DNA of 34,775 bases, from contig CAYNMI010000001.1 of the NCBI GenBank assembly GCA_964398095.1, forward strand, positions 1 through 34,775. The letters are read 5' to 3'. The notes under the pieces are model-generated. The model saw nothing but the letters and a program-made list of their open reading frames with translations, was not told the origin of the DNA and ran no database searches. Positions 4,036 to 26,913 of this stretch are shown here, piece after piece (within the stretch, counting starts at the first letter, position 1; the number at the start of each line of letters is the position of its first letter). The DNA is from an uncultured Desulfobacca sp. Its GTDB lineage: Bacteria > Desulfobacterota > Desulfobaccia > Desulfobaccales > 0-14-0-80-60-11. Both the position numbers and the translations under genes were made by a program.

Positions 4036-4062
4036 TTTCGCCTCAGGCCGCCTTTTCCAGGT

Positions 4063-4078
4063 TAAGGGCGCGCCCTTA
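4063..4078. repeat. perfect 16-bp palindrome TAAGGGCGCGCCCTTA about 30 nt upstream of the FmdE-fusion start codon
   Basis: Read directly from the sequence; TAAGGGCG and CGCCCTTA are exact reverse complements. Could be an operator or a 5'-UTR hairpin. No U-tract follows on the minus strand. Confidence 0.5.
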
Positions 4079-8531: not shown

Positions 8532-10964
8532 TTATACCGATTTGGTCAGGCCATACAAGGGATACCCCTCTTCCCAGCGTCGGCGAATTATCCGGTTATC
8601 CCGCAGTAATTCGTTCAAGACCGGGGCGACTTCATCCGACCGTTCCCCCAAGGCCCTGGCGATCGCCGGCGGATTGAGGGGACCGTCGGTCAAGGCCCCG
8701 ATGATCCTGGCGGCCAGATATTCCTCCCGCAGCACATCCTGCATGCTCTCGTCGAAATCCACGGCATTGCATTGATCGCCGGGAAATTCTTTCTCCGATG
8801 GCCTTCTCAAGCTCACTCCCAAAACCCAGCGGACCCGGGGCCGATGCATGGTGGCGTGGGCCGCCAGGAGCCTTTTCTTGGTGTCTTCGGAGCGATCCAC
8901 GGGCCCCACCTGGTCCAGGTGGTCCAGGAAAGAATCCGCCATGCGGATAAAGGCCTCGGGCTGGTTCACCTCCACGTATCCCAAGGCGATGCGTTTCCTC
9001 GACAATCCGGACATGGCCAGCAGCTTCTTCATCAGGTAAACCCGGTGCCAGGTATGGTCCACGCCATAGCCGTAATGGCAGGAGGCGGTGGGCGTACAGC
9101 CGGCCAGCAGAATGCCGTTGGCCCCGTTCAAGAAGGCCATGGACAAAACCGTGGGGTCGATGGAGCCCAGGCAGTTCACCGGGATCAGGTAAACCCGGCT
9201 GGAATAGGCGAGCCCCTTGACGGCAGCCTGCTCGGCCGCGCCCTGGCCGCCCCAACTGCACACCAAGCCCAATACCGCGTCTTGCGGCATCCGGGGGAGA
9301 ATGGCCCTGATCCGGGCTTCCAACTGCTGGGAGCTGTTGTTGAGCAGCTTCATGGCTTCATAGGGACAGGCCGCGGCGCAACTGCCGCCGCCGTCACAGG
9401 TATGGGGACTCACATGCCGGGGGACGGCGCCGTTACCGGCCGCCACACTTTCCACCCCGCCGCAAGTGCAGATCTCGTTGCAGAGTCCGCAGCCCTCGCA
9501 CAGGGACTGGTCCACGGTAACCACCACCAGGGGGCTGGCCAGGCCGCCTTTGCGGGCCTTATCGCGCAGGTGCAGGACTTCCCGGGCCGCGTTTTTCCCC
9601 TGGAGCAGAGCTTCGTCCAGATCGCAGAGTTTCAGGGCCGAACCGGTAAGAATCAGGGATTCCACCGGCTTTTGATCGGGCTTCAGGGCCATGGGACCCT
9701 TCTTCAGGCTGCCGCCGTTGTGCGAGAAGAGGGGCAGGCAGCGCATCAATTCCCGGGCCTTGGCCAGGGGCTCGCCGGGAATGGCTGAAACCACCAGGGT
9801 ATCCCAGCCGACCTCATGTTCCAGGTGATCGTGCGGGTTGACGTAATTCAGATATCCCGATTTGACCACCGGATGGATGTCAGGATTATAGGGATAAAGC
9901 CCGATGCCGCGCCGGCGGGCTTCCACCAGGTCGGGTCCGGTCAGAGGCAACCGAATGTCCGCGGGATACAACACCGTGGGCCTCACCTGGGGATAATTCT
10001 GCACCAACACCTGGCTGGTCCGCCAGGCCGCGGCGGCGGCGAGTTCCTGGGCCCGCCGGCCCTCTTCCCGGTGGTTGACCCAAAAGACCACGCTCCCGGG
10101 TGTTACCCGCTTCCGGGCTAAGCGCTCTTCCAGGTCCAACTGGTCAATGACCCGGTCCGCGCCCCCCATGGCCCAGCCCTCCTCACTGGCGAACTCCCGA
10201 TCCAGGGCCAGGATGATGGCCGAACCCCTCAGTTCACTGACGCCGCCGGGAGATTGCTGCAAACCCACGTGGTAATCCCCCACCTGCCCCATCACATATT
10301 CCACGGGCTGGTCCGGCGCCATCTTGACCCGGGGATTGGCAAAAACTTCCTGGAGCATGGCTTCCAGGTCCCGGAAGTTGAGGCGGTTGCCGGGATAGGT
10401 CCGTTGCAGTCCTGTCAAAACTTCGCCCGGGTCCCGGGCCCCGGGGAATATCAGGCTTTCCATGCCATGATGGGCCAGTTCCCGGGCCGCGGCGAAACCG
10501 GAAATTCCGCCGCCCAGGATCAGGGCCGGACCCTGAAAGTCCGCCAGCACCGGTGCATAGGGTTCCAGCGTTTCGAGGCTGGCCCGGGCGCCCTCCAGCA
10601 GGGCGAGGGCTTTGCGGGTCAGCTCCGGGGAGTCATCTTCATGCACGGCCGCCAGGTGATCTTTCAAATTGACCAGGTCCACCTGGGGCGCCATGATCCC
10701 CAACGGCTTCAGCTCGCGGGCAAACTTCTTTTTCATGATCCGGTCGGAACAGGCGCCGATGAGCACCCGGTTGAGGCCGTGGTCCCGGGCCAGACGGGTC
10801 AAGGCCGCCAGCCCCGGCGCCATGCATAAGTAGGGGTGGATACTGACGTGGCCCACCCCCGGTTCACGGCTCAATTGAGCCCCAACCTCCCCCAGATTCA
10901 TCCGGCCGCTGATTTTTTCCCCACACTCACAGAGAAAGATCCCCAGTTTCACGTCGTCTTGCAT
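8532..10964 (-). CDS. HdrA-like (C-terminal-half type) flavoprotein fused to a ferredoxin domain, an MvhD/FlpD domain and a winged-helix-like tail
   Basis: Track ORF 8532..11000 (-). I prefer the ATG at 10964 (GCGGAGG RBS 5 nt upstream); the alternative ATG at 11000 abuts the upstream stop. Motifs: LGIFLCECGEKISG (HdrA thioredoxin-like domain), ALILGGGISGFAAARELA (dinucleotide fold), CEGCGLCNEIC and CDGGGSCAAACP (ferredoxin-like), and VCSWGG...NCLGSIDP...LLAGCTPTASCHYGYG (MvhD block). Confidence 0.8.
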   Translation of the reverse strand: MQDDVKLGIFLCECGEKISGRMNLGEVGAQLSREPGVGHVSIHPYLCMAPGLAALTRLARDHGLNRVLIGACSDRIMKKKFARELKPLGIMAPQVDLVNLKDHLAAVHEDDSPELTRKALALLEGARASLETLEPYAPVLADFQGPALILGGGISGFAAARELAHHGMESLIFPGARDPGEVLTGLQRTYPGNRLNFRDLEAMLQEVFANPRVKMAPDQPVEYVMGQVGDYHVGLQQSPGGVSELRGSAIILALDREFASEEGWAMGGADRVIDQLDLEERLARKRVTPGSVVFWVNHREEGRRAQELAAAAAWRTSQVLVQNYPQVRPTVLYPADIRLPLTGPDLVEARRRGIGLYPYNPDIHPVVKSGYLNYVNPHDHLEHEVGWDTLVVSAIPGEPLAKARELMRCLPLFSHNGGSLKKGPMALKPDQKPVESLILTGSALKLCDLDEALLQGKNAAREVLHLRDKARKGGLASPLVVVTVDQSLCEGCGLCNEICTCGGVESVAAGNGAVPRHVSPHTCDGGGSCAAACPYEAMKLLNNSSQQLEARIRAILPRMPQDAVLGLVCSWGGQGAAEQAAVKGLAYSSRVYLIPVNCLGSIDPTVLSMAFLNGANGILLAGCTPTASCHYGYGVDHTWHRVYLMKKLLAMSGLSRKRIALGYVEVNQPEAFIRMADSFLDHLDQVGPVDRSEDTKKRLLAAHATMHRPRVRWVLGVSLRRPSEKEFPGDQCNAVDFDESMQDVLREEYLAARIIGALTDGPLNPPAIARALGERSDEVAPVLNELLRDNRIIRRRWEEGYPLYGLTKSV

Positions 10965-11000
10965 GGCCGCCTCCGCGTTGCCGCCCTTCGCCGGCGTCAT

Positions 11001-11579
11001 TCAGGCCACCGCCCGGACCCGGTTGAAGAATTGTTCCATGGCTCCGGTGGGACAGACGTACAGACAGGTCCCGCAGCCGATACACTCCGGACTGGGTAAG
11101 TGATAGGAGGTGGTCACTTCCTTGTGTACGCCCCGGTTGCCGAAGGATAAGCACCCCACCCCGGCCACCTCCTCACAGGCCCGGACGCAGAGGCCGCAGA
11201 GAATACAAACGTCCTCATAACGGCTGCTCTTGAACCTGGATGCTTTGACCCCATAGGTCTGGGCCAGAACTTGCAGCCGCTCCGAGCCGGGGTGCTCGTC
11301 CACCAACATCTGGAGGATCCACCGGCGCACGTTCTGAATGCGGTCGCTCTCGGTCCAGACCTTGAGGCCGGCCCGGATGGGATAGAGACACGATGCCACC
11401 ATCCGGCGCCGCCGGCCGTCGTCCACTTCCACCATGCACAGCCGACAGGCTCCGGACGGTTCCACCGCGCCATGCTGACAGAGGGTGGGGATATCGATGC
11501 CGTGCTCCCGGGCCACCTCCAGAATGGTCCAGCCGTCCTGGCCGCTGACTTCCCGGTCGTTGATGGTGAGATGAACCAT
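11001..11579 (-). CDS. [2Fe-2S] plus 2x[4Fe-4S] ferredoxin-type subunit (NuoG / HydA N-terminal-like)
   Basis: Track ORF 11001..11714 (-), trimmed to the ATG at 11579 (GGAGGA RBS). Starts MVHLTINDREV...; contains CRLCMVEV (2Fe-2S fold), CILCGLCVRAC and CIGCGTCLYVCP. Confidence 0.85.
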   Translation of the reverse strand: MVHLTINDREVSGQDGWTILEVAREHGIDIPTLCQHGAVEPSGACRLCMVEVDDGRRRRMVASCLYPIRAGLKVWTESDRIQNVRRWILQMLVDEHPGSERLQVLAQTYGVKASRFKSSRYEDVCILCGLCVRACEEVAGVGCLSFGNRGVHKEVTTSYHLPSPECIGCGTCLYVCPTGAMEQFFNRVRAVA

Positions 11580-11593
11580 GTCCCATCCTCCTT

Positions 11594-13507
11594 TTAGCAA
11601 ATCTCGATGGCGCCGAACTTGCACGCTTCCGCACAGGCGCCGCACTTGATGCACAGCGCCGGATTGATCCGGTGCGCCTCTTTTTTGGCGCCCGCAATGG
11701 CCCCGGCCGGGCATTCCCGGGCGCAGAGGGTGCAGCCGCTGCAGAGTTCCGGGTTAACGGTGAAAGTGATCAGGTCCCGGCAAACCTTGGCGGGGCACTG
11801 CTTTTTGAGGATGTGGGCCTCGTACTCCTCCCGGAAGTAGCGCAGGGTGGTGAGCACCGGGTTGGGGGCCGAACCGCCCAGGGCGCAGAGAGAGGCGTCC
11901 TGCACCGCCTGGGCCAGGGAGGTGAGTTCATCCAGGTCCTCCAGGGTGCCCTGGCCCCGGGAAAACTCCTCCAGCATGGCATGCATCCGCTTCAGTCCCA
12001 GGCGGCAGGGCGTGCATTTGCCGCAGGATTCGTCCATGAGGAAGTCCAGGAAATACTTGGCCACATCCACCATGCAGGTGGATTGGTCCATGACGATCAT
12101 ACCGCCGGAGCCCATGATGGACCCGGCCTCCCACAGGGAATCAAAGTCGATGGGCAGGTCCCACTTCTCTTTGGGGATGCAGCCGCCCGACGGGCCGCCG
12201 GTCTGCACGGCTTTGAACTCCCGGTCCCCCGGCACCCCGCCGCCGATGGCCATCACCATGTCCTTGATGGTGACCCCCATGGGCACTTCCACCAAACCCA
12301 CGTTCTTCACCTGGCCCACCAGGGAGAAGATCTTGGTGCCCGTACTGCCCGGGGTGCCGATGGACTTGTACCAGTCGGCGCCTTTGCCGATGATGACCGG
12401 CACGTTGGCCCAGGTCTCGACGTTGTTCAGGTTGGAGGGGCGGCCCCAGAGCCCCTTCTCCACCGTATGGACATACTTGGCCTTGGGTTCGCCGGGGTGG
12501 CCTTCAATGGAGGCCATGAGGGCCGTGGATTCGCCGCAGACAAAGGCCCCGCCTCCCAAATTGATTTTCAGGTCGAAATTGAAGCCGGTGCCGAAGAGGT
12601 TCTCTCCCAGGAAGCCGGCCTCCCGGGCCGCAAAAATGGCGTTTTGGAGCGTCTTCACCGCCAGGGGGTACTCGGCCCGCACATAGATGTAGCCTTCGCT
12701 GGCCCCGATGGCGTAGCCGCCGATGAGCATGCCCTCCAGGATGGAGTGGGGATCGCCCTCAATGAGGCTCCGATCCATGTAAGCCCCGGGGTCCCCTTCG
12801 TCGGCGTTGCACAGGACATACTTGGGCCACCCTTTGGCCTTCCGGCAGGATTGCCATTTGACCCCCGTGGGGAAACCGCCGCCGCCCCGCCCCCGCAATC
12901 CCGAGGCGATGATCTGTTCTATGACCTCCTCCGGGGTCATGGCGGTCAGGGCTTGATACAGGGCGGCATAGCCTCCCCGGGCGATATAGTGCTCCAGATT
13001 GTCCGGGTCGATGAAGCCGCAATTGCGCATGGCCAAGCGCCGCTGCATCTTGAAAAAATCCAGTTCCTCATAGAGCGGCACGGAGGCCAGGAAGCCCTTC
13101 AGTTGTTTCCGGCGGTATAGTCGCCGGGGACCGCCATCCAGGAGCATCTCATCCACGTCGATCCGGCCCAGGAGACGCTTTTCCGGATAGCGGATGGAGT
13201 TCATCTCCTCCCAAAATGATTCCACCGCTTTGGGGGTCATGAGCTCGTAGGTCAGGCGGGGGCTGGCCGGCCAGATGAGGTCCACCAGCGGTTCCTTGTA
13301 ACAGAAACCGATGCAGCCGGTCTTTTCCACCACCCCGTCCCACGCTTCGGCCTCGGCCTTCCGGCGCAACAGATCATAGACCTGCTGGGCTCCCGCGGCC
13401 AGGCCGCAGGTGGCCATGCCCACCAGAATCTTGGGCTTGGGGGGGTAAAGGGAGGCCAGGCCGGCGTCCTTCACCTTCTGCAAATCCTCGAGGTTGGTGA
13501 TCTTCAT
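11594..13507 (-). CDS. NuoF / HydB-like NAD(H)-binding FMN iron-sulfur flavoprotein
   Basis: Track ORF 11594..13624 (-), trimmed to the ATG at 13507 (MKITNLEDLQKV...). N-terminal thioredoxin-like 2Fe-2S domain (MATCGLAAG, GCIGFCYKEP). GRGGGGFPTGVKW (FMN site), CNADEGDPGAYMDR and ESCGKCTPCRLG (4Fe-4S). C-terminal CSGCTLCARECP / CIKCGACAEAC. Confidence 0.9.
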   Translation of the reverse strand: MKITNLEDLQKVKDAGLASLYPPKPKILVGMATCGLAAGAQQVYDLLRRKAEAEAWDGVVEKTGCIGFCYKEPLVDLIWPASPRLTYELMTPKAVESFWEEMNSIRYPEKRLLGRIDVDEMLLDGGPRRLYRRKQLKGFLASVPLYEELDFFKMQRRLAMRNCGFIDPDNLEHYIARGGYAALYQALTAMTPEEVIEQIIASGLRGRGGGGFPTGVKWQSCRKAKGWPKYVLCNADEGDPGAYMDRSLIEGDPHSILEGMLIGGYAIGASEGYIYVRAEYPLAVKTLQNAIFAAREAGFLGENLFGTGFNFDLKINLGGGAFVCGESTALMASIEGHPGEPKAKYVHTVEKGLWGRPSNLNNVETWANVPVIIGKGADWYKSIGTPGSTGTKIFSLVGQVKNVGLVEVPMGVTIKDMVMAIGGGVPGDREFKAVQTGGPSGGCIPKEKWDLPIDFDSLWEAGSIMGSGGMIVMDQSTCMVDVAKYFLDFLMDESCGKCTPCRLGLKRMHAMLEEFSRGQGTLEDLDELTSLAQAVQDASLCALGGSAPNPVLTTLRYFREEYEAHILKKQCPAKVCRDLITFTVNPELCSGCTLCARECPAGAIAGAKKEAHRINPALCIKCGACAEACKFGAIEIC

Positions 13508-13512
13508 GGTCC

Positions 13513-13980
13513 TCACCTCTTGCGGTAGTCTTTGACCAGTTGGCCGGCCTTCCTCTGGTTGAGGTTGCCATGAATCTCGTCGTCCACCCGGGCCACCGGC
13601 CCCATGGAACAGCATCCCAGACACCGGACCTTGTTCAGGGAGAACTTGAGATCCCCGGTGGTCCCCTCGGACCCCGGAATTTCCAGGTCGCGCCGCAGCT
13701 TGTCATAGACGTTGGTGGCGCCCTTCACGTGGCAGGCCGTACCCATGCAGACACAGACGTCGTGCTCGCCCTTGGGTTCCAGGCTGAAGGACTTGTAAAA
13801 CGTGGCCACCGCCCAGCCCCGGGCCACGGGCACCCCCAGATGGTTGCAGACCGCCGTCAAGGCCTCCGGCGGGATAAAATTGAATTCCGCCTGGACCTCC
13901 TGGAGGGCGCTGACCAGATGTTCCGGACTGGGCGGATACCGCTCCAGGATGGTTTCCATTCTGCCGAAAGATACGCTCAT
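13513..13980 (-). CDS. NuoE / HydC-like [2Fe-2S] thioredoxin-like ferredoxin subunit
   Basis: 155-aa ORF with the NuoE-type cysteine pattern CVCMGTACHVKG ... CLGCCSMGP. GGAGGG RBS. First gene of the operon. Confidence 0.9.
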   Translation of the reverse strand: MSVSFGRMETILERYPPSPEHLVSALQEVQAEFNFIPPEALTAVCNHLGVPVARGWAVATFYKSFSLEPKGEHDVCVCMGTACHVKGATNVYDKLRRDLEIPGSEGTTGDLKFSLNKVRCLGCCSMGPVARVDDEIHGNLNQRKAGQLVKDYRKR

Positions 13981-14022
13981 GGCCCTGCCCTCCGCCTTCT
14001 GGAGTATTTACCGCAATGCCAG

Positions 14023-14038
14023 AGCAAGCTTGAGGCCA
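14023..14038 (-). promoter_or_regulatory. sigma-54 (-24/-12) promoter of cluster 1: TGGCCTCAAGCTTGCT
   Basis: The reverse complement of 14023-14038 reads TGGCCTCAAGCTTGCT. GG and GC have the canonical spacing of TGGCAC-N5-TTGCW (positions 2-3 and 14-15). It lies about 40 nt upstream of the NuoE-like ATG and downstream of a sigma-54 activator gene. Confidence 0.6.
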
Positions 14039-14372
14039 CATAGCCTATCATAATGAAATTACTGGTAATTTAACGATGCAGGGAAAGGGGCGCGCTGGCC
14101 TTGGGAAGGTAAAATGAGCGAATGTGCAACAAAATTTGAGATAAATTATAGTATAGTTAGAATAATCAGCTAGTTATGATTTTTAAGCCTGATGTCGTAA
14201 AAATGGAACAAAGATGAGGGCCAGAGACATTTTCTCTCGGTTCGCAGGGGTCGATTATAAGACAGGAATGGGATGAAAATAGGACAGATTGCGGAGGTGC
14301 GGTTTCAATAAGATCATTCAAAAACCCGAAAACTCCCCAAAAACAAATTGTCGCAGAATTGCAACCCGCGTT

Positions 14373-15773
14373 TTAGAGATTAATTTCCGCCGCATTGATC
14401 TTATAGGCCTTCATCTTGCGCCAGAGCTTGCTGCGATGAATTTTCAGCAGGCGCGCTGCCTCCTGCTTGTGGCCGGAGGCCTGCTGCAGCGCCTTGACAA
14501 TGGTTTCCCGTTCCATGGCCTCCAGAGGGCTGATGGAGGGTTCTTCCCACAGGGCTTCGGTATGGAAGCGGGAGGCCTCCAGGGGCGGCAGGTGGCGCCG
14601 GGTGATAATCGGCCCTTTGGCAAACACGAAACAGTACTCCAGGACGTGCTGCAGCTCCCGGATATTGCCGGGCCACAGGTGGCGGCTGAAGGTCTTCATG
14701 ACCATGGGGTCCACCCCCCGGACCCGTTTGTTGAATTTGCGGTTGAGCTTTTCCAGAAAGTGCTTGACGAGAATCGGCAGATCCTCCCGTTTGTCCCGCA
14801 GCGGCGGCAGATGAATGGGCACGGTAAAGAGACGGTAGTACAGATCATCCCGGAATTTCCCCTGGCGCATGGCCTCCTTCAGGTCAACATTGGTGGCCGC
14901 GATGATCCTGGCCTCCAGGGGGATTTTGCGGTTGCCGCCCACCCGTTCGTAAGCCCGGTCTTCCAGGACCCTCAAAAGTTTTACCTGGATTTCCGGCCGG
15001 AGTTCGCCGATTTCATCCAGGAACAGCGTCCCGCCCCGGGCCGCCTCGAACCGGCCCGGTTTGGAGGCCACCGCCCCGGTAAAGGCCCCCCGTTCATGGC
15101 CAAAAAGCTCGGACTCCAGCAGGGTCTCGGGAATGGCGGAACAATTTACGGCCTGAAAGGGTCCCTGGCGCCGGGGACTGTGGGCGTGGATGGTCCGGGC
15201 CACCAGTTCCTTGCCGGTGCCTGACTCCCCCTGGATCAGCACATTGGACTCGGACGCGGCAATGATGGGCAGTCTCTGAATGAGCTCCTGTATCTGGGGG
15301 CTGATCCCCACAATCAGGGCCATGGCCTCCCGTTCCTTCTTCCCGGACGCCGGCAGGTGTAAGGCGTTCAGGTCATGAAAGGTTTCTATGCCCCCCAGGA
15401 TCAGGTTGCCGGCCTTCTTGATTTGGGAGGTATTAACCAGGATTAATCTTTTCTGTCCCCCTTTGGTGAGGATTTCCACCTCCCGGTCCAAGACGTATTC
15501 CCCGGTGGTCATGGAGATGCGCATGGGGCATCTTTTGTGGCACAACTCGCTCTGGAAGATTTCCCAGCAGAACTTGCCCAGGGCTTCCTCCCGGGAGAAC
15601 CCGGTGATTTCCTGGGCGGTTTGGTTAAAATAACTCAGTTGCCACCGGGTGTTCACCACGAACACCCCCTCGGGGAATTGGTCCAGGATCTCCGCATGAT
15701 TGAGGCCGAGGAATTTGAGGGCCCGGTCCATATTCTGATGGGCATTCTTTTCAAACGTCAGCACTGGGTCCAC
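14373..15773 (-). CDS. sigma-54-dependent transcriptional activator (PAS - AAA+ - Fis-type HTH), no receiver domain
   Basis: GTG start with a GGAGG RBS. PAS domain ([26 protein letters not shown]) carrying C-x8-C-x3-CP. Walker [15 protein letters not shown] loop (ERGAFTGA), Walker [12 protein letters not shown]-terminal [22 protein letters not shown]. Confidence 0.9.
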
Positions 15774-15949: not shown

Positions 15950-15965
15950 AGCAATTTCTATGCCA
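15950..15965 (-). promoter_or_regulatory. sigma-54 promoter of the cluster-1 activator gene: TGGCATAGAAATTGCT
   Basis: The reverse complement of 15950-15965 reads TGGCATAGAAATTGCT, with canonical GG/GC spacing. The 16-mer is identical to 19988-20003, which lies upstream of the paralogous activator. Confidence 0.6.
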
Positions 15966-16081
15966 AAGCAAAATCCCCTGGCCTGCGGTCCAGCCGGAGA
16001 CATCCGGCCAGGGGAACGGTAGATGGGGCAGGGTTCAGGTGAATTCGCCGCTGACCATGACCACTCTGCCCCGCCGCGTTT

Positions 16082-17137
16082 TTATAGAGGACTCAGCCGG
16101 GGCAGGGTAAAAAAGAAGGTAGTGCCCCGGCTCGGATTGCTGGCCACCCAGATGCGGCCGCCGTGGGCGTCGATGATGCGCTTGACGATGGCCAGGCCCA
16201 GACCCAGGCCGCATTCCCTGGCGGAGCTATTCCCGCGATAGAGCAGTTCAAAGAGGTGGGCCTGGTCTTTCGGGGCAATTCCCGGACCCTGGTCTTGCAC
16301 CGAAAACTGCGCCTCGGTCCCCAAATCCCGGACCTCTAAGAAAATTAAACTCTGGGGCGGCGAATATTTAATGGCATTCTCCAACAGGTTGGCTAAAGCC
16401 CGCTGCAACAAGAGGGGATCGGCCTGGACCACCAAGGGGTCCGGGGGAAACTCGGTCTGCAAGGTTATCCCCTTGGCGTCGGCCAGAGGTTGAATCTGAC
16501 TGACCGCCTCCTGGCATTCCTCTTCCACCTGGACCGCGCTGGTGAGAGGCGTGATGAGGTGGAGATCCAGCCGGACATAATCGAGAAAGTTATTGATCAG
16601 CTTTTCCAACCGGCTGATTTCCTGGCTGATGGTCTGGATGTAAGCCGCCTGGGCTTCGGCCAGGGCGCCCACCTTGCCCTGGCCCAAACGCCTTAAGAGG
16701 CCGGCCGCCGCCACCACCGGGGTCTTCAGGTCGTGGGCGAACATGCCCACCAGTTGGCGGCGTTCATGCTCCAAACGCTTGAATAAGCCGATGTCCCTGA
16801 AGCTCTCCACTCCCCCCAGAAGGTTGCCCTGATCATCCCGTAAGGCCGACGCGGCCAGCATTACCTCGATCTTTTGGCCCTGGCGGTTTTGCAGGACCGC
16901 TTCCCGGCTCACCACCTCGCCGGAGTTCATGGCGGTTTTTAAGGGACATTCCTTGCCGCACAAACTGCTCCGCAGCACTTCGCCGCAATGTTTCCCCAGG
17001 GCCTTCTTCCGGACAAGCCCCGTGAGCTTTTCTCCGGCCCGATTGAGGTCGGTGACCTGCAAGCGCCCGTCCACGGTGATAATGCCGTCGGGCAGGCTCT
17101 GGATAATGAAATGCGGCCAATCACCGAGATCGCCCAT
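16082..17137 (-). CDS. cytoplasmic PAS sensor histidine kinase
   Basis: PAS domain (LPDGIITVDGRLQVTDLNRAGEKLTG) with the same C-x8-C-x3-CP motif (CGEVLRSSLCGKECP). H-box FAHDLKTP, N-box LLENAIKYS, G-boxes DQGPGI and GLGLGLAIV. No TM segment seen. Confidence 0.9.
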   Translation of the reverse strand: MGDLGDWPHFIIQSLPDGIITVDGRLQVTDLNRAGEKLTGLVRKKALGKHCGEVLRSSLCGKECPLKTAMNSGEVVSREAVLQNRQGQKIEVMLAASALRDDQGNLLGGVESFRDIGLFKRLEHERRQLVGMFAHDLKTPVVAAAGLLRRLGQGKVGALAEAQAAYIQTISQEISRLEKLINNFLDYVRLDLHLITPLTSAVQVEEECQEAVSQIQPLADAKGITLQTEFPPDPLVVQADPLLLQRALANLLENAIKYSPPQSLIFLEVRDLGTEAQFSVQDQGPGIAPKDQAHLFELLYRGNSSARECGLGLGLAIVKRIIDAHGGRIWVASNPSRGTTFFFTLPRLSPL

Positions 17138-17192: not shown

Positions 17193-17528
17193 TTACGGTT
17201 GGGTGCCTTCCATTTCTTGGAGACGTTTCTGGACTGCCTCCAGTTCACTCTTCAAAGCGGCTGCCTCGGCCCGGAGGGCCGCCGCGTCATCGGGGAGAGA
17301 GCCGGCCGCGGCAGGCCCAGGCCCGAAAGGGCCATAGCCTCCGGGACCATAGCCGCGCCGGAAACCGCCACCAAAACCATAACCGGGGCCCATACCCCAG
17401 ACACCGCGGCCCAAACCCCGGCCGCCGCCACGCATACCGCCACGGCGCATACCCGCGCCACAGGGACCCCGGCCCCAGCCGGTGCCCGGTCCCTGACCCC
17501 ACGGTCCGGTTGCATTGAAACCTGGCAT
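17193..17528 (-). CDS. DUF5320-like Gly/Arg-rich protein with a C-terminal coiled-coil
   Basis: Track ORF 17193..17597 (-), trimmed to the ATG at 17528 (GGAGG RBS 8 nt upstream). Sequence MPGFNATGPWGQGPGTGWGRGPCGAGMRRGG..., then AALRAEAAALKSELEAVQKRLQEME. This layout matches my recollection of the DUF5320 family. Confidence 0.7.
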   Translation of the reverse strand: MPGFNATGPWGQGPGTGWGRGPCGAGMRRGGMRGGGRGLGRGVWGMGPGYGFGGGFRRGYGPGGYGPFGPGPAAAGSLPDDAAALRAEAAALKSELEAVQKRLQEMEGTQP

Positions 17529-17647
17529 ATTCATTACCTCCTTGCCCTGAATTCTTGGGCTTTTCACAGACTCACTTCCCTGGCGTGCACGATGCAATCA
17601 AGCCAGTCCAACCATTCCAGGATTGGTTAAGCAAAGCCCCGGTGCTT

Positions 17648-18007
17648 TCACCAGTGACCCGAGACATTCGGGCCCGGGGCCGGGCTCAGTTTACCCCCGC
17701 GGTACTGCTGGACCGCCTCCCGCACTACCCCAACCACCCCCAGGACCACCGGGATGCCGGCCGCCTGCAGCGTCTGGTAGGCCTTGGGGCCGCAGTTCCC
17801 CGTCAGCACCACCTGCGGCCGGTGGCGGGCCACCAGGGCCGCGGCCTGAATGCCCGCGCCCCGGGCCATCTGGAGGCTTTGCTGGTTGGGCACCACCTCA
17901 AACTCCAGGTTGTCCGGGTTAATGAGAAGAAAGTAGGGGGCCCGCCCGAAACGGGGATCCACCTGGGCCTCCAGGTCAGGCCCGCCGGCGCTTACGGCAA
18001 TTTTCAT
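17648..18007 (-). CDS. NifX / NifB-C-terminal-like (dinitrogenase FeMo-cofactor-binding fold) protein
   Basis: 119-aa ORF MKIAVSAGGPDLEAQVDPRFGRAPYFLLINPD...VVLTGNCGPKAYQTLQAAGIPV. These are the typical blocks of this small alpha/beta family. AAGGAG RBS. Confidence 0.8.
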   Translation of the reverse strand: MKIAVSAGGPDLEAQVDPRFGRAPYFLLINPDNLEFEVVPNQQSLQMARGAGIQAAALVARHRPQVVLTGNCGPKAYQTLQAAGIPVVLGVVGVVREAVQQYRGGKLSPAPGPNVSGHW

Positions 18008-18377
18008 GGTTAACTCCTTATCTCCACTTGCAGGTCAAGATTGAGGCTTCCCCCGGGGCGGGAGGGAAAGAGGGAGGAGGTTATCCATGCCGAGTTGGAT
18101 TTTCAGATAACCACCCTCCCGCTAGCCGGGGGAAAGTTTAGGTCAGGACGGCGCCGCCATCTACGCCCAACGAAACCGCCTTAAGGGTCATGCGGCCCGG
18201 CGTGCAGGATGCCCACTCCTTGGCCACCGAATTCTCCACGACTCACCCCATGGCCTGGCAGGGGACCGTGGGGTTTGACAATGGCTGCGCATCTCACGAC
18301 TTCCCGTTGATTGCCGCGGCATCCCCGCAAGGGCTGATGCCGCTTTCAGGCCTCTTAATTATTCACTATAGGTTATA

Positions 18378-18393
18378 ATCAAAAATCGTGCCA
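18378..18393 (-). promoter_or_regulatory. weak sigma-54-like site TGGCACGATTTTTGAT (perfect -24, imperfect -12)
   Basis: The reverse complement of 18378-18393. The -24 box TGGCACG is consensus, but the -12 box has GA instead of GC. It lies about 370 nt upstream of the NifX-like gene. Low confidence. Confidence 0.2.
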
Positions 18394-18682
18394 GCCAAGC
18401 TGGAACCCGGCTGAACGGCTCGTATGATCCTGGGTGGGCCATTTATGGCTGATATTGGGGACAAATTGCACCCAAATCGATTTTCCAAGGCGTCAAAATA
18501 TTCCCATTGAGATGGCAAGATGGTGCGAAGGGAATAGTGAGGGATGGCGGGCTTGCCTTCCCGGGGGTCACCGGCGGCGCAGAGCCTAAATCTCTGGCTC
18601 CGGGCCGCCAAGGCCCCCATCGAGCTGGTCTGGCTGGTCCCGCCCTTGCCGCCCCCTGGTAATCGCAGGTAAGTCCTCCGGC

Positions 18683-19345
18683 TCAGCCCCGCACCATGGA
18701 TTGGCCGCACTGGGGACATTTCACCTGCATGCAGGGAATCCCGCGCTCATGGGGAGCGCTGGCGCCGCAAGCCGGACAGCGGCAGACATCCTGCACTCCC
18801 GCCCCCTGGCCCGTGCCTGGCGCCCTGGCCCCGCCGCCCTGAACCCGGCACTGGCCGCGCCCTCCGCCTTGCCCCTGGCCCCCGCCTTGCCTTTGGCCCT
18901 GGCCTCCGCCTTGTCCTCTACCGCCCCTTCCGCCTGGCATGGTATCTTTTCCTCCTGGTTGATTGTTTTGAGGTGAGTCATCCGGGTTCCGGCAACCCTG
19001 GCGGTAGCGCCTGGGCCCCCGGCATCCCGGCAGCCAAAACTCCGGTTCTCCCAGGCGGTCTTCCCGATAGGCCCTGAGAACCTCGTCCACTGCGCCCGCC
19101 ACCCCAGAGATCACCCTCAACCCCTGGTGCCTCGCGCCATACAGTAATTCGAGGCTCAAAGCGCCGCAGATCAGGGTGTCGACCCCTTTTTGCCGCAACA
19201 CTTTGAGACGGTCCAGGGCCTCCATATCCGGAAACCGCAGTTCCTCCTCCGGTCCCTCCCCCGAGTCGTCAGGGAAGATGAGAATCCGAGAACACCAGTT
19301 CAACACCGGCGCCACCCGAGTCCACATAACCGGTATGGCGATCAT
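18683..19345 (-). CDS. NifX-like domain fused to a Gly/Gln/Arg-rich linker and a C-terminal double CxxC zinc-ribbon-like tail
   Basis: Track ORF 18683..19381 (-). Start tentatively at the ATG at 19345 (MIAIPV...). N-terminal part has VDTLICGALS and GLRVISGVAG, consistent with a NifX-like fold. Then MPGGRGGRGQGGGQGQRQGGGQGQGGGRGQ, then CRCPACG...CMQVKCPQCG. Confidence 0.65.
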   Translation of the reverse strand: MIAIPVMWTRVAPVLNWCSRILIFPDDSGEGPEEELRFPDMEALDRLKVLRQKGVDTLICGALSLELLYGARHQGLRVISGVAGAVDEVLRAYREDRLGEPEFWLPGCRGPRRYRQGCRNPDDSPQNNQPGGKDTMPGGRGGRGQGGGQGQRQGGGQGQGGGRGQCRVQGGGARAPGTGQGAGVQDVCRCPACGASAPHERGIPCMQVKCPQCGQSMVRG

Positions 19346-19987
19346 GCCTGTCCCCAGCCATGGGGTTCTGGAAATCGGCAATATTTCCTCACAGGGTCAC
19401 TCCCGGAACAACCTGATGACCAACTTCATTCGCATCTTACCTAAGCAGGTTATGTGCCAACCCTGATGGTTGCTGGGAATCGCACCTGCCGGGAGACCAT
19501 CGCCGGGCCAACTGGGGACAAAATGTCCCCACTCCGTTGCCGGACCACGAGGAGAGCAGCCAGGGCCCGGACGCCCCGGCAGCTTGCCCAGCCCAACCCC
19601 TCAGGGGGCGCCGCCTGCCGGGATTCGGGGGCCTTGCCGGCCCCGCCACCAAGATGACGGATACTCTCGCAAAGAAAACCCGGGACCCCATCTGCAGGGC
19701 CGAATGAACCGCGCGGTTCACGTCCGGTTCCGGGACGGCGGGGGGGTCGGATTTCCCCCACCCCACTGGATGATGCAAGGGCAGAATTGCTCAGGATGGC
19801 TGTATCGGCTGGAGAAAAATCCGCGCTAAGCGGCGCCGATCCTCACGCTAGCCGGGGCCGCACCTGCCGGCGGGCCCCCACTCTGCGGGATCACGCCCGC
19901 CAACCCATCAAAATTTCCCCCGGCAAGTTATCGGGCGGGACCGCTTCACTGGACTTTTTCAGGCTGCCAGGCCTCGTGAGAATTTTC

Positions 19988-20003
19988 TGGCATAGAAATT
20001 GCT
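19988..20003 (+). promoter_or_regulatory. sigma-54 promoter of the cluster-2 activator gene: TGGCATAGAAATTGCT
   Basis: Canonical GG (19989-19990) and GC (20001-20002) spacing. About 120 nt upstream of the activator start. The 16-mer is identical to the minus-strand site at 15950-15965. Confidence 0.6.
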
Positions 20004-20122
20004 CATTAAAAATATCGTATTAAGATCAACATATTGTATCCTGTGGAGGGGAAAGCTTAAGGAAGTTAACCCCACGCCGACTAAGCCCTTCTTTCGTCCT
20101 GAGCCACTTGGGGGCAAGCGCC

Positions 20123-21799
20123 ATGGATGCCGATTGTGGAGTATTGGTGGTAAGCCGCCACGGCAGACTGTTGGCCGCCAATTCCCTGGCGGAGTCCCTT
20201 CTCGATTGCCCTCTGCCCTCCGGTAGTCACTTAGATGATAGCTTGCTGGCCCGTTCCCTCACCCGGCATGGCCATCCCATCTGGGAAATGCTGAGCTGCG
20301 GGGAGGAAGAACAGGGACTTTTGCAAGCCGACGACGCCGTGGGTACCGGCATTTTCTATAGGTGCATCCCCCTTTACAACGAAGACAATATGGTCACGGG
20401 CACGGTCATCACCCTGGAAAGAAGGACCGACGAAGCCCTGAGCCAGGCGTTGCAATTCTTGGGGCTGACGCACGATGAGATCATGGACCAGTTCCCGGAG
20501 GGGGTGTTCGTGATCAACACCCTGTGGCAGCTCAGTTATTTTAATAAGACCGCCCAGGAAATCACCGGGTATTCCCGAGACGAAGCCATGGGCAAGTTCT
20601 GCTGGGAAATCTTCCGGAGTGAGCTCTGCCACAAGAAATGCCCCATGAATGTCTCTATGAGCACCGGCCAAACCCTTTTGGATCAGGAGGTGGAAATCCT
20701 CACCAAGTCTGGTCAAAAACGCATGGTTCTGGTGAATAGCGCCCAGATCAAAAACCCGGGCCACAAAGTCCTGGGAGGGGTGGAAACCTTTCATGACCTG
20801 AGTTGCTTCCAGTATCCCGCGGAAATGAAGGACCGGGGGGTTTTTGCGGACATCGTCGGGGTCAGTCCCCAGATGCAGGAAATTATCCAGAGACTTCCCG
20901 TCATCGCCGCCTCGGATTCCAATGTGCTGATCCTGGGCGAGTCGGGCACCGGCAAGGAGCTCATCGCCCGGGCCATTCACCTGCTGAGTCCCAGGCGGAA
21001 AGCGCCCTTTCAGGTCGTCAATTGTTCGGCGATCCCGGAGACTTTATTGGAATCCGAGCTTTTTGGCTATGAGCGGGGGGCCTTCACCGGGGCCGTGGGC
21101 AGTAAGCCGGGGAAGTTCGAGTTGGCTCGGGGCGGCACGCTTTTCCTCGATGAAATCGGCGACCTCCGGTCGGAACTGCAGGTAAAGCTGCTGCGGGTGT
21201 TGGAGGATAGGGCCTTCGAGCGGGTGGGGGGCAACCGGAAAATTCCCCTGGAGGCCAGGATCATCGCGGCCACCAATGTGGAGTTGCTGGAAGCCATGCG
21301 CCAGGGCCGGTTCCGGGACGACCTTTACTACCGGCTGTTCACCGTACCCATCCACCTGCCGCCCCTCCGGGACAAGCGGGAAGATATTCCCATTCTGGTC
21401 AAGTACTTCCTGGAACAGCTCAACCACAAGTTTAACAAGAGAATCCGGGGGGTGGACCCCAAGGTGATGAAACTTTTCTGCCGTCACCCCTGGCCCGGCA
21501 ATGTGCGGGAACTGGAGCATGTCCTGGAATACTGCTTCGTCTTTGCCAAGGGTCCTTTAATTACCGAGCGTCATCTGCCGCACCTGGAAAGCGCCTGGCC
21601 CGGCCGGGAACTGGAGGGCGTCGATAGGTCCCTCAGCCCCTTGCAGGTGCTGGAACGGGAAACCATTATCAAGGCCCTGGAGCAGGCGTATGGGAGCAAG
21701 CAGGAGGCGGCTCGCCTGCTGCAAATCAGCCGCAGCAAATTATGGAGAAAGATCAAGGCTTATCAGATTGAGGCGGTTGATTTCAAAGTGAAACATTAA
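20123..21799 (+). CDS. sigma-54-dependent transcriptional activator (extra N-terminal PAS-like region - Cys-PAS - AAA+ - HTH), paralog of 14373..15773
   Basis: Track ORF 20108..21799, trimmed to the first ATG (20123). [67 protein letters not shown], and HTH QEAARLLQISRSKLWRKIK. Collinear with the other activator over its whole length. Confidence 0.9.
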   Translation: MDADCGVLVVSRHGRLLAANSLAESLLDCPLPSGSHLDDSLLARSLTRHGHPIWEMLSCGEEEQGLLQADDAVGTGIFYRCIPLYNEDNMVTGTVITLERRTDEALSQALQFLGLTHDEIMDQFPEGVFVINTLWQLSYFNKTAQEITGYSRDEAMGKFCWEIFRSELCHKKCPMNVSMSTGQTLLDQEVEILTKSGQKRMVLVNSAQIKNPGHKVLGGVETFHDLSCFQYPAEMKDRGVFADIVGVSPQMQEIIQRLPVIAASDSNVLILGESGTGKELIARAIHLLSPRRKAPFQVVNCSAIPETLLESELFGYERGAFTGAVGSKPGKFELARGGTLFLDEIGDLRSELQVKLLRVLEDRAFERVGGNRKIPLEARIIAATNVELLEAMRQGRFRDDLYYRLFTVPIHLPPLRDKREDIPILVKYFLEQLNHKFNKRIRGVDPKVMKLFCRHPWPGNVRELEHVLEYCFVFAKGPLITERHLPHLESAWPGRELEGVDRSLSPLQVLERETIIKALEQAYGSKQEAARLLQISRSKLWRKIKAYQIEAVDFKVKH

Positions 21800-21945
21800 G
21801 CTCGTTTTCGCGACATTCTTTAAAAAGATAATCATTGAATATTTCAAATAAAAATTAATGTGCGCATGAAATTGTTTTAATTCCGCTCATTTTCTCCTTT
21901 TCTCTCGGGCTGGCTTTTTTCTCTCTTTGAACCCTTTTTAAAATT

Positions 21946-22006
21946 TTGCGACATTTTTATATATTATAACTAATTGATATTTCGATTAATTATCAATATG
22001 TCGCAT
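21946..22006 (+). promoter_or_regulatory. candidate activator-binding (UAS) inverted pair TTGCGACAT ... ATGTCGCAT upstream of the cluster-2 sigma-54 promoter
   Basis: TTGCGACAT (21946-21954) and its inverted partner ATGTCGCAT (21998-22006) flank an AT-rich segment containing ATTGATA/TATCAAT. A third copy, TCGCGACAT, is at 21808-21816. Related copies occur upstream of cluster 1 (complement of 14348-14355 and 14192-14199). Confidence 0.3.
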
Positions 22007-22095
22007 AAAGTGTCTTAATTCCGACTATTTTTAGGCCAAATCAGGCTTTTGAGCCTATCAGATAAATTTCCATTATATCAATTAGTTAAGTTATT

Positions 22096-22111
22096 TGGTC
22101 TCTTCTTTGCA
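22096..22111 (+). promoter_or_regulatory. sigma-54 promoter of cluster 2: TGGTCTCTTCTTTGCA
   Basis: GG at 22097-22098 and GC at 22109-22110, with canonical spacing. About 160 nt upstream of the hdrL ATG. An IHF-like match TATCAATTAGTTA (22076-22088) lies just upstream. Confidence 0.55.
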
Positions 22112-22270
22112 CTGCTTGTGCGCATAAAGGCTCAAACCAGAGACAGAGGCCAGGATTATGAGCGGGATGGACCGTCCCTAGCAGGGCCCTGGAATCCGGA
22201 GCGCCGGGATCACCCCTCTTCCGGGTCAGGGGGCACCATAACAACCAGGCAAGGTTCTTCAGGGGGCGCT

Positions 22271-25200
22271 ATGGCAGAAAAAGTGCTGGGCTCGGTAATG
22301 GTGGTGGGGGGCGGCATCGCCGGGATGCAGGCCGCCTTGGATTTGGCCAATTCGGGCTATCTCGTCCACCTGGTGGAAAAGAAGCCGGCCATCGGCGGGG
22401 TGGTGGCGCAGCTGGACAAGACCTTCCCCAGCAACGACTGCGCCATGTGAATTGTCTCCCCCAAGCTGGTCGAGGTCGGCCGGCACCGCAACATCGAGAT
22501 CCATACCCTGGCGGAACTGCAAGGCATCAGCGGCGAGCCCGGTGATTTTACCGTCCGCCTGGCCAAGCAGCCCCGCTACGTCGATCCCGCCAAATGCACC
22601 GGTTGTGGGGACTGCGCCAAGGCCTGTCCCGTGACCATGCCGGATGAATTCAACCTGGGGCTGGCGGATTGGCGGGCCGCATACCGCCTCTACCCCCAGG
22701 CCATCCCCCCGGCCTTCGCGGTCAAGAAACTGGACCGGGCCCCCTGTGTGCGAGCCTGTCCCGCCAATCTGAGCGCCCAGGGTTATGTGCAATTGATTAA
22801 GGCCGGCAAGTTTCAGGAGGCCCTGGCCCTGATCATGGACCGCCTGCCCCTGCCCGGCACCATCAGCCGCGTCTGTCCCCACCCCTGTGAGACCGACTGC
22901 CGCCGCCAGGAGCTCGATGAGCCCCTGGCCATCTGCGCCCTGAAGCGCTTCGTGGCCGATGCCGCGGACTGGGAGGCCCTGCCGGTGCCGGAGGTGGAGC
23001 GCCGGGAGGAGCGGGTGGCCATCGTCGGGGGCGGGCCCTCCGGTTTGGGCTGCGCCTATCATCTGGCCCTCATGGGATACCGGCCGGTGATCTTTGAGGC
23101 CGCCCCGGAGGCCGGCGGCTGGCTGCGCTACGGCATCCCGGAATATCGTCTCCCCCGGGAGGTGCTCCAAAGGGAAATCGACTACATCCGGAAGCTGGGT
23201 GTGGAGATCCACGGCAACACCCCCATCGGGGCAGGGCGCACCATCTCCGACCTGCTGGCCCGGGAGGGTTTCCGGGCGGTCTATTTAGGGGTGGGCTGTC
23301 AGGAATCTCTGTACCTGGCGGCGCCCGGGGTCGAGGCCCGGGGGGTGTTCTGGGGGGGCGAGTTCCTGAAGGACGCGGCCTCAGGTCAGGCGCCTCACTC
23401 TAAGGACAAGCGGGTCATCGTTATCGGCGGCGGCAATGTGGCCCTGGATGTGGCCCGCACCGCCCGGCGCCGGGGCGCGGCCCAAGTTACCGTCGTCTGT
23501 CTGGAGAACGCCTTTGAGATGCCGGCCTTGCCCTGGGAGGTGGAGGAAGCCGAGCAGGAAGGCATTGAGATCATGTATCGCTGGGGCGTCAAGCAGGTCC
23601 TCACCGCCGGCGATCAGGTAACCGGCATTGAACTGAAAGGGGTGGAGCGGGTCTTTGACGAGCAGGGGCGCTTCGCGCCCGTCTATCTTGAAGAACAGCT
23701 CCTCACCCTTGACTGTGAGATGGTGGTCATGGCCATCGGCCAGAAGGCCGATCTGAAGTTCCTGACCGAAGCGGACGGCGTCGCACTTACCCCCCGGGGC
23801 CTCATCCAGACGGACCCGGAGACCCTGGCCACCAGCCGGGAGGGGGTCTTTGCCGGGGGCGATGTGGTCTCCGGCCCCTTCATCGCCATCGCGGCGCTGG
23901 CCGCGGGCCGCGAAGCCGCCATTTCCATAGATCGCTATCTCAAGGGGATGGATCTGAAAGAAGGGCGGGAACTGCCGCTGCGGCCCATCCAGGAGGGCAA
24001 CTGGAATCCGGTTCCCAAGGGCCAGGCCAGGCAACCCCGGGTTGCCACCCCGGTTCTGCCCACCCCCGAATGGGTCCAGGGATTTGAGGAAATCCACCGG
24101 GGCTTCACCCAGGAACAAGCCGTGCAGGAGGCGGAGCGCTGCCTGGCCTGCGGCGTGTGCTCGGAATGTATGCAGTGTGTCGCGGCCTGCCTCCCCAAGG
24201 CCCTGGACCACCGCCAGCAGCCTCAATCCGTGGACCTCGAGGTGGGCGCGGTGATCCTGGCCCCGGGCTTTGCATCATTTGATCCCGGTCAGTATGAGGC
24301 TTATCACTATGCCTCGCACCCCAACGTGGTCACCAGTCTGGAGTTTGAACGCATTCTGTCGGCCTCCGGACCGTATTTAGGCCATCTTGTCAGACTTTCG
24401 GACCAACAGGAGCCCAAAAAGATCGCCTGGCTGCAATGCGTCGGCTCCCGGGATCTGCATCACGGCGATAACCGCTATTGTTCGTCGGTGTGCTGCATGT
24501 ATGCCATCAAACAGGCGATGCTGGCCCAGGATCACACTCACGGCCCTCTGGATACGGCCATTTTCTATATGGACCTGCGCACCCACGGCAAGGACTTTGA
24601 GAAATATTATCACCGGGCCGCGGACCGCGGCGTCCGGTTTATCCGTTCCCGGGTGCACAGCGTCGATGCGGCCCCGGACTCCCAGGAGCTGACCCTGCGC
24701 TATCTCTCGGAAGACGGCCGGGTGCAGACGGAAAATTTTGATCTGGTGGTGCTTTCCACGGGGCTGACGGCCCCGCCGGACGCCATTAAATTGGCCGACA
24801 CTTTAGGGGTCCAGGTAAACCCGGACACGCGTTTTGCGGCCACGAATCCCTTTACGCCGGTAACCACCCATAAGCCGGGGGTCTTCGTGTGCGGGGCTTT
24901 TCAGGGTCCCAAAGACATCCCCCAATCGGTCATGGAGGCCTCCGCCGCCGCGGCCGCCGCCAGCGAACTGCTGGCCGGGGCGCGCCATACCTTAAGCCGG
25001 ACCAAGCCTGACTATTCCGAGCGTGACGTCTCCCAGGAAGATCCGCACATCGGCGTGTTCATCTGCCATTGCGGCACCAATATTGCCGGCGTCGTAGATG
25101 TCGCGGCGCTGCGGGACTACGCCGAAACCTTGCCCCAGGTGGAGAATGCGGAAACCTTCCTCTTCGCCTGCTCCCAGGATAGTCAGGCAACCCTGAAGGC

Positions 25201-26746: not shown

Positions 26747-26748
26747 CC

Positions 26749-26913
26749 ATGCAAGCGGAATTCCCGGCGTTTCTGGGTAAAGGATGCGCTTATGCCAGTA
26801 CTGCCTCGGACAGGATGTCCCGGTTTCCGTATCCCTCTCAAATCCGGGTCATTTTCAACCTGGGTGCCGGCAGGTGGTTCCGGTCTAAGAGCTGGAGGCA
26901 GGAGGGACCATGA
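26749..26913 (+). CDS. 54-aa ORF resembling only the N-terminal third of MvhD, with most Cys ligand positions substituted (possible remnant or adaptor)
   Basis: Below the track's size cut-off; my own translation gives MQAEFPAFLGKGCAYASTASDRMSRFPYPSQIRVIFNLGAGRWFRSKSWRQEGP. Compare MvhD at 28445: ILAFLCKWCSYASADLAGVSRFQYPPNIRVMLTMCSGRV. The ATG is 2 nt after the hdrL stop, and the stop overlaps the next start (ATGA at 26910-26913). Confidence 0.4.
   Translation: MQAEFPAFLGKGCAYASTASDRMSRFPYPSQIRVIFNLGAGRWFRSKSWRQEGP

Follow-up and report, generated by a model that had tools for sequence, protein, structure and literature searches.

An OrpR-like cysteine-triad PAS domain in two sigma-54 activators and a histidine kinase at a locus with Nuo- and Hdr-type operons in an uncultured Desulfobacca

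The sigma-54 activator OrpR (DVU2106) of Desulfovibrio vulgaris Hildenborough joins a PAS domain to an AAA+ module and a helix-turn-helix (HTH) domain. Its PAS domain contains three fully conserved cysteines, Cys52, Cys61 and Cys65 (C-x8-C-x3-C), as well as an Asp/Glu at position 54, and binds a redox-sensitive [4Fe-4S]2+ cluster that is converted to [3Fe-4S]1+ by mild oxidation. Anaerobically purified OrpR gives Fe-S signals in UV-visible (UV-vis) and electron paramagnetic resonance (EPR) spectra, Asp/Glu54 is a candidate fourth cluster ligand, and deletion of the PAS domain, like the change of the three cysteines to Ser, leaves expression of the orp operons blind to redox potential (PMC8359166). 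In Bacillus licheniformis, NreB holds a three-cysteine [2Fe-2S] cluster whose labile sulfur ligand mediates sulfide sensing (PMC13478379). Here, we analyse a 34,775-nucleotide stretch of DNA from an uncultured Desulfobacca sp. (contig CAYNMI010000001.1 of assembly GCA_964398095.1, positions 1 to 34,775; ‘the window’) that encodes two sigma-54 activators, Act1 and Act2, and a soluble histidine kinase, all three with a PAS domain that bears the OrpR-type cysteine triad.

Act1 (14373..15773, minus strand) is a 466-amino-acid PAS–sigma-54 AAA+–HTH_8 protein with its PAS domain at about residues 28-137 (15363..15692, minus strand; Pfam PAS_9/PAS_4/PAS). The triad, C69-x8-C78-x3-C82-P83 with Glu71 two residues after the first cysteine (Cys+2), is encoded at 15525..15569 on the minus strand, which translates into a 15-residue peptide. 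The matching peptides are CWEIFRSELCHKKCP in Act2 (20600..20644, plus strand) and CGEVLRSSLCGKECP in the kinase (16943..16987, minus strand; C51-x8-C60-x3-C64-P65, Glu53 at Cys+2), all coordinates running from the first Cys to the Pro. A preliminary description of this DNA had placed Cys-x8-Cys-x3-Cys-Pro at the same site of the PAS domain in the three signalling proteins. Translations and alignment agree, and the Cys-to-Pro spans given there are right; the ‘GKF/GKH’ residues quoted with them are encoded 9 nt 5′ of these spans. Apart from a gap of one residue that does not touch the motif, the three PAS domains align throughout, at identities to Act1 of 71% for Act2 and 33% for the kinase. Cys, Glu (Cys+2), Cys, Cys and Pro are invariant across them, and the strings FPEGV/LPDGI and LGG(V/I)E(T/S)F(H/R)D are found in the flanks. 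The threefold occurrence in the window reflects PAS paralogy, not independent origin.

Conservation of these cysteines in homologues was one of the points on which the earlier reading had been made to depend. The triad is invariant in 120/120 full-length Act1 homologues and kept in 119/120 kinase homologues, the exception carrying a 3-residue insertion. It is also present in 21/21 PAS-only fragments that cover the motif, from a PAS-only profile search that gave short fragments and served for motif counts, not architectures. Because it is invariant or nearly so across homologues, the triad is a strongly selected feature and not a chance pattern. An acidic residue occupies Cys+2 in all 120 activator homologues and in 104/119 kinase homologues, with A, K or S in 13 of the 119. 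That only three cysteines are strictly conserved had been pointed out before, and the same is true of OrpR itself (C52/C61/C65, with Asp/Glu54 as the fourth-ligand candidate; PMC8359166).

Our comparison with OrpR uses an orthologue from a Desulfovibrionaceae metagenome-assembled genome (MAG), locus L004 (L numbers denote loci from other genomes), and not DVU2106 of D. vulgaris Hildenborough itself. An exact 27-mer of the Hildenborough orp2 promoter (PMC3897727 Fig. S1) had no match in the collection of genome contigs; L004 was found with a tolerant pattern built from two OrpR palindromes, which matched five loci in the genome collection. We regard the enhancer-binding protein (EBP) of L004 as a genuine OrpR orthologue because five sequence features coincide. 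Its N-terminus is MAIPRDIP, against MALPRDIP in Hildenborough (decoded from PMC3897727 Fig. S1B); Cys52, Glu54, Cys61 and Cys65 fall in the exact Hildenborough numbering; the GAFTDA loop is as reported for DVU2106; paired OrpR boxes lie immediately upstream; and its neighbours, DUF5320, MinD-like/Fer4 and Nitro_FeMo-Co, are orp genes. Over 427 aa, Act1 shows 42% identity to this protein (E 1e-121); for the kinase PAS against the PAS of L004 the identity is 40% (E 2e-27). In both comparisons the PAS domains align ungapped, with triad and Glu in register. An Fe-S or redox input, suggested in the preliminary description, thus finds its match in the published OrpR PAS (PMC8359166), and is supported because the window PAS domains are homologous to this characterised sensor. 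Glu98 of Act1, invariant in one homologue alignment, was considered as a universal fourth ligand and rejected, as the OrpR orthologue has Ala there.

Act1 adjoins an operon of redox enzymes (8532..13980, minus strand; Pfam and synteny) that encodes a NuoE-like protein (13513-13980), a NuoF-like protein (11594-13624), a 2Fe-2S/4Fe-4S ferredoxin-like protein (11001-11714) and an HdrA-like/MvhD (FlpD) fusion (8532-11000), all assigned by Pfam and all on the minus strand. An Act-type EBP gene lies directly upstream of NuoE-NuoF-ferredoxin-HdrA/FlpD(-FrhB) genes in 5/5 genomes (the window, L006, L012, L013 and L014). A -24/-12 sigma-54-type promoter, TGGCCTCAAGCTTGCT, is found at 14023..14038 (minus strand), 42 nt upstream of the NuoE-like start, and the same element occurs in the four other genomes: TGGCC-N6-(C/T)TTGCT is conserved 37-48 nt before nuoE in the five orthologous leaders. 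Common to these leaders are also one or two upstream modules with GCGACATTTTT and GTTTTAATTCCGC(T)CATTTT. The AT-rich modules, of which each leader has one or two copies ahead of the -24/-12 element, run in the order GCGACATTTTT … ATAACT..TGA.ATT … GTTTTAATTCCGC(T)CATTTT (window 21806-22030 and 14100-14372; L006 11405-11821; L012 10441-10801; L013 10405-10776; L014 10648-11013). We propose them as candidate enhancer sites, possibly of the IHF type, for the Act-type EBPs.

Downstream of Act2 lies a second operon (22271..28031, plus strand; Pfam) with a selenocysteine-containing HdrA/GltD-like fusion (22271-26746, plus strand) and an FrhB-like subunit (26910-28031, plus strand; Pfam). The fusion is read as a selenoprotein because an in-frame TGA (22448-22450) falls within a canonical HdrA motif. 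Three apparent open reading frames (ORFs; 22049-22450, 22452-22634 and 22631-26746) are accordingly one gene product of ~1,490 aa, and gene callers split the L014 homologue in the same way. The AT-rich leader between Act2 and this gene (21806..22030, plus strand) carries candidate enhancer modules with the motifs of the orthologous leaders: GCGACAT at 21810 and 21948, GTTTTAATTCCGCTCATTTT-type motifs and an 18-nt inverted repeat (21944-21961/21991-22008). A promoter-element search gave a weaker -24/-12 candidate, TGGTCTCTTCTTTGCA, ahead of the selenoprotein gene at 22096..22111 (plus strand), with an alternative at 22168-22183. A selenium-responsive input, also raised in the preliminary description, has no support beyond the selenocysteine in this regulated HdrA gene.

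Together these comparisons make it probable that the three proteins share an OrpR-type [4Fe-4S] PAS sensor, which would gate the sigma-54 activators of the adjacent electron-bifurcation-type operons and set the autokinase activity of the kinase. The triad and the acidic Cys+2 residue would form the cluster-binding site of an OrpR-type PAS, with a redox-sensitive [4Fe-4S] cluster as the most likely occupant, held in the canonical PAS cofactor pocket. In Act1 and Act2 the PAS domain is predicted to restrain the sigma-54 AAA+ module. With the cluster reduced and intact, the activator would be active, bind the upstream enhancer sites and open the -24/-12 promoters of the adjacent operons, which code for enzymes of the flavin-based electron-bifurcation type (NuoEF-ferredoxin-HdrA/MvhD and Sec-HdrA/GltD-FrhB); it would be switched off when the cluster is oxidised or loses an iron. 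In the kinase, the level of autokinase activity would most likely be set by the triad PAS, in the manner of the cytoplasmic Fe-S kinases of the NreB type, and the signal would pass to a receiver encoded elsewhere. The earlier proposal of an input that directly gates sigma-54 activation of the Hdr-like operons is supported for the activators by synteny in 5/5 genomes and a conserved -24/-12 element. It does not extend to the kinase: the Pfam domain scan finds no receiver domain in Act1 or Act2, which excludes direct gating of sigma-54 by the kinase.

Several observations speak against carrying OrpR over to this locus. The Act clade is only ~40% identical to OrpR, its loop is GAFTGA in Act1 and Act2 versus GAFTDA in DVU2106 and L004, and the third cysteine is followed by Pro-Met-Arg where OrpR has Val-Leu-Lys. 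The OrpR box GGGCGYRTTTTGCGCCC has only two matches in the window, each with three mismatches and inside an unrelated ORF, which is chance level. The Act1 and Act2 genes are apparently sigma-54-driven, whereas orpR in D. vulgaris is sigma-70-driven and self-repressed. Because the Act clade diverges from OrpR in identity, loop, proline, box and promoter, its cluster type or switch logic could differ as well. The upstream motifs are assigned to the Act EBPs by co-conservation only, the Cys+2 carboxylate is absent from ~13% of kinase homologues, and the window encodes no receiver domain, leaving the kinase without a visible partner. Finally, neither a PDB sequence search nor the top 50 of 572 fold matches contained a solved structure of the triad PAS subfamily; the PDB copy searched dates from April 2026 and either lacks the structure of the NreB PAS or has it in a form too dissimilar to match.

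The same three cysteines could serve other chemistries. A triad cluster with an open or exchangeable fourth site might sense sulfide, persulfide, thiol or nitric oxide instead of bulk redox. This would suit a motif with only three invariant cysteines whose Cys+2 carboxylate is dispensable in 13/119 kinase homologues (A/K/S) and in 7/43 diverse triad PAS domains. At one homologous locus, moreover, the EBP gene has genes for sulfur trafficking (TusA, DsrE and Hdr-like) beside it. The three-cysteine PAS cluster of NreB can sense via a labile ligand (PMC13478379). However, the closest characterised relative, OrpR, carries [4Fe-4S] and answers to redox potential (PMC8359166), and the NreB motif C63-x2-C66-x11-C78 is unlike the triad; NreB was undetected as a sequence relative at E <= 1e-3, and we hold small-molecule sensing to be unlikely. 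For the same reason of spacing (C-x2-C-x11-C; PMC13478379), NreB is a poor choice as the comparator for the motif, the role that it had initially been given.

The site might also bind zinc or another non-redox metal through the three cysteines and a Glu, a His or a residue from the partner subunit, as a structural or metal-sensing site. Cys3-X sites commonly bind zinc, some homologous clusters have genes for CbiM, ZIP or cation efflux in their vicinity, and the PAS domain of WalK is among the weak sequence matches. Zinc binding is reported for the cytoplasmic PAS domain of WalK, yet that site does not use a cysteine triad and the reported suppressor residue is a His (10.1101/405365). Moreover, the regulated genes here encode redox enzymes and not metal homeostasis functions, and anaerobically purified OrpR shows Fe-S UV-vis and EPR signals and needs the triad cysteines for its redox response (PMC8359166). 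A zinc site has, in our estimate, only a small chance of being correct. Smaller still is that of a metal-free switch, in which a reversible disulfide between two of the three cysteines would alter PAS conformation. Redox-active cysteine pairs do regulate some PAS kinases, such as ArcB, and the C-x3-C spacing would let a disulfide span a single turn of a helix. Nonetheless, such a switch needs less than three invariant cysteines together with an acidic position and either Pro or Ala, strictly anaerobic lineages have a very reducing cytoplasm, and the OrpR data indicate a cluster (PMC8359166).

The predicted fold is compatible with a cofactor site. A confident AlphaFold2 model of the Act1 PAS domain (pLDDT 87.4) has canonical PAS topology. 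The modelled first cysteine starts the short E-alpha helix, after a ‘…SREEALGK’ turn, the second lies in the loop that follows E-alpha, and the third immediately precedes the F-alpha helix. In the model, the triad thus sits in the classic PAS cofactor region. The best Foldseek matches are cofactor-binding PAS domains, namely LOV, the heme proteins DosP and FixL, and FAD-binding NifL (probability 1.0, TM 0.65-0.75). In a weak alignment with LOV2 (…SREE-LG-x-x-C), the photoactive cysteine falls on the first triad cysteine.

Both activators match Pfam PAS, Sigma54_activat, AAA_lid_14 and HTH_8, and have an intact Walker A motif and a canonical GAFTGA loop. The longest ORF for Act2 (20108..21799, plus strand; Pfam) comprises a degenerate N-terminal PAS-like region, the triad PAS, the sigma-54 AAA+ module and HTH_8; the true start could be 20123 (ATG) or 20147 (GTG, a 550-aa gene call). 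The extra N-terminal region (20108-20470, plus strand; Pfam PAS_4, E 0.046) has no cysteine triad and occurs also in many homologues of 548-568 aa; it may receive an additional input of another kind or serve in dimerisation. The Act1 gene (15950..15965, minus strand) and the Act2 gene (19988..20003, plus strand) are preceded by the same -24/-12 element, TGGCATAGAAATTGCT, the best-conserved block of two leaders that have diverged elsewhere. On this evidence both regulator genes look dependent on sigma-54, through auto- or cross-activation. At Act1 the element lies just past a terminator-like hairpin (15974-16015), itself 3′ of the kinase gene.

The kinase (16082..17137, minus strand; Pfam) is a soluble 351-aa PAS–HisKA (HDLKTP)–HATPase_c protein. 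Nothing hydrophobic precedes its PAS domain, which begins at residue ~10, there is no membrane segment, and H-box and HATPase domain are intact. It is the final gene of a minus-strand orp-like operon, whose orp-like genes (17193..19381) encode a Nitro_FeMo-Co protein with a Cys-rich tail (18683-19381), a second Nitro_FeMo-Co protein (17648-18007) and a DUF5320 protein (17193-17597), each on the minus strand and assigned by Pfam. A promoter-element search places a -24/-12 element, TGGCACATAACCTGCT, upstream of the operon (19444..19459, minus strand), which is divergent from Act2 in the same layout as orpR/orp in Desulfovibrio; the window operon has no MinD-like ATPase gene. On the minus strand there are two GC-rich hairpins with a T run behind them. 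One (15974-16015) comes directly after the stop codon of the kinase and ahead of the Act1 promoter, the other (18391-18414) falls inside the ORF 18366-18719. Their positions suggest that the orp-like genes, the kinase and Act1 are transcribed separately and that the ORF 18366-18719 is no real gene. This 117-aa ORF was considered as a receiver partner for the kinase and rejected: it has no Pfam match, is unlike the receivers of L008 and L011, and overlaps the terminator-like hairpin. Genes for an FmdE–zinc finger–MoCF_biosynth fusion and for ABC transporters occur near the orp-like/kinase cluster both in the window (2392-4152 and 1461-2180, minus strand) and in L011 (17147-20605), a hint that the surroundings of the Nitro_FeMo-Co (orange-protein-like) genes have to do with molybdenum/tungsten cofactors.

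The gene families of this operon also flank OrpR in L004 and kinase homologues in L007-L011. Among the 119 listed, kinase homologues are 66-89% identical, and they close orp-type clusters in L007, L008, L010 and L011; in L009 the genes ahead of the kinase are reduced to one for a Nitro_FeMo-Co protein and one, truncated, for a sigma-54 AAA+ protein. The clusters of L008, L010 and L011 encode MinD/ParA-Fer4 ATPases and Nitro_FeMo-Co proteins, in some cases with DUF5320 or NifU_N, together with a shorter EBP that looks more OrpR-like and has the triad (GRPCCEVFRANVCESACVL); such EBPs head orp clusters in other genomes. Within two of the orp-type clusters lies a stand-alone 125-aa receiver-like protein (L008 8658-9035 and L011 7883-8260; 62% mutual identity), a candidate kinase partner. 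Paired OrpR-box-like palindromes occur at L001 1303-1350, L002 3821-3869, L005 5027-5071 and L003 628-675, in Christensenellales, Bacillota and Oscillibacter MAGs and a Desulfobacterales MAG; the chance expectation of the pair pattern is very low by a rough estimate. A simple motif screen of the retrieved DNA (triad, GAFTGA, Walker A) showed no EBP near these palindromes.

The triad PAS is not confined to activators of this kind. A profile search and neighbourhood check, as advised in the preliminary description, recovered the triad subfamily in several architectures besides the Nuo/Hdr synteny described above. In the exhaustive PAS-profile search, the triad is present in 35 of the best 147 representatives, often in two or three copies; its carriers include sigma-54 EBPs, methyl-accepting chemotaxis proteins, histidine kinases and PAS-only proteins. 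The search returned 575 clusters at E <= 1e-30, a count dominated by giant multi-PAS proteins through summed scores and not a clean family size. D/E occupies Cys+2 in 36/43 diverse triad PAS domains. These counts argue for a widespread module, often in tandem. Beside a MetF-HdrA-MvhD (MTHFR/FlpD) operon in L007 lies an EBP of the same length without C-x8-C-x3-C (12877-14280, minus strand), whose PAS domain is Cys-rich in another way (GQKCSILNCSIFNLAREKCDGHWC, C-x4-C-x9-C-x4-C) and may be another Cys/metal-cluster variant tied to Hdr-type genes. A broader and much more tentative picture, which we put forward as possible but doubtful, is that the triad PAS is a broad modular Fe-S sensor, of which a dedicated clade in Desulfobaccales-like bacteria reads cytoplasmic ferredoxin/NADH redox poise, or a sulfur species via an open fourth site, to set expression of the electron-bifurcating NuoEF-HdrA/MvhD complexes, and that the kinase paralogue in the orp (metallocluster-handling) operon is a second output branch of this circuit.

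The motif and its Fe-S/redox role were published in 2021 for OrpR (PMC8359166) and are not a discovery, so that the novelty implied for the motif at the outset is lower. What is new is the Act clade, with its GAFTGA loop, its own upstream motifs and its association with NuoE-NuoF-ferredoxin-HdrA/MvhD genes, along with the triad PAS on a soluble histidine kinase that ends orp-like clusters and the spread of the triad PAS as a module. A literature search, with most subscription papers outside its coverage, turned up no publication that deals with the kinase version or with a link between EBPs and NuoEF/Hdr genes. OrpR is the only characterised Fe-S PAS EBP, and the window extends it to a kinase output and a wider sensor family. 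Regulation of electron-bifurcating Hdr/Nuo-type complexes in strict anaerobes is largely unknown, and the locus gives a regulator and a promoter that can be tested as a pair, since it combines an OrpR-type PAS activator with a -24/-12 element and upstream motifs that are conserved across the clade. For annotators, C-x8-C-x3-C with D/E at Cys+2 is a useful signature, as the Pfam and NCBIfam scans of the three window proteins matched generic PAS models only and none dedicated to the triad PAS subtype.

Among known systems, the FMN-binding LOV, heme-binding FixL and DosP and FAD-binding NifL PAS domains have the same fold as the Act1 PAS, which lacks their flavin- or heme-binding residues and has the cysteine triad as its ligand set. 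NreB of Staphylococcus and Bacillus resembles the window kinase as a soluble PAS–HisKA–HATPase protein with conserved cysteines in the E-alpha/F-alpha cofactor region, but differs in cysteine spacing (C-x2-C-x11-C(-x2-C) versus C-x8-C-x3-C; PMC13478379). Beyond the generic PAS fold, no significant sequence relationship was found between NreB and the triad PAS. NreB also pairs with NreC, where the window kinase has no visible partner, and its gene context is nitrate or sulfide genes, where that of the window kinase is orp-like genes. It is likely a working analogue of the kinase, with the state of a cluster setting autokinase activity.

OrpR stands much closer. It shares with Act1 and Act2 the order PAS–AAA+–HTH_8 without a receiver domain, with all three window proteins the C-x8-C-x3-C motif, equally placed within the PAS fold and with D/E at Cys+2, and with the locus the nearby orp-type genes for DUF5320 and Nitro_FeMo-Co proteins and a regulator (Act2 or orpR) divergent from an orp or orp-like operon. 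Unlike OrpR, Act2 has an extra degenerate PAS, and in the Act clade the upstream motifs GCGACATTTTT and GTTTTAATTCCGC stand in place of the OrpR box. The Hildenborough OrpR regulon consists of two orp operons only, whereas Act1 and Act2 adjoin the NuoEF-HdrA/MvhD and Sec-HdrA operons. Because it has conserved leader motifs of its own and Nuo/Hdr synteny in place of an OrpR box, the Act clade is best read as a paralogous subfamily whose members are not OrpR orthologues and have their own DNA sites and regulon.

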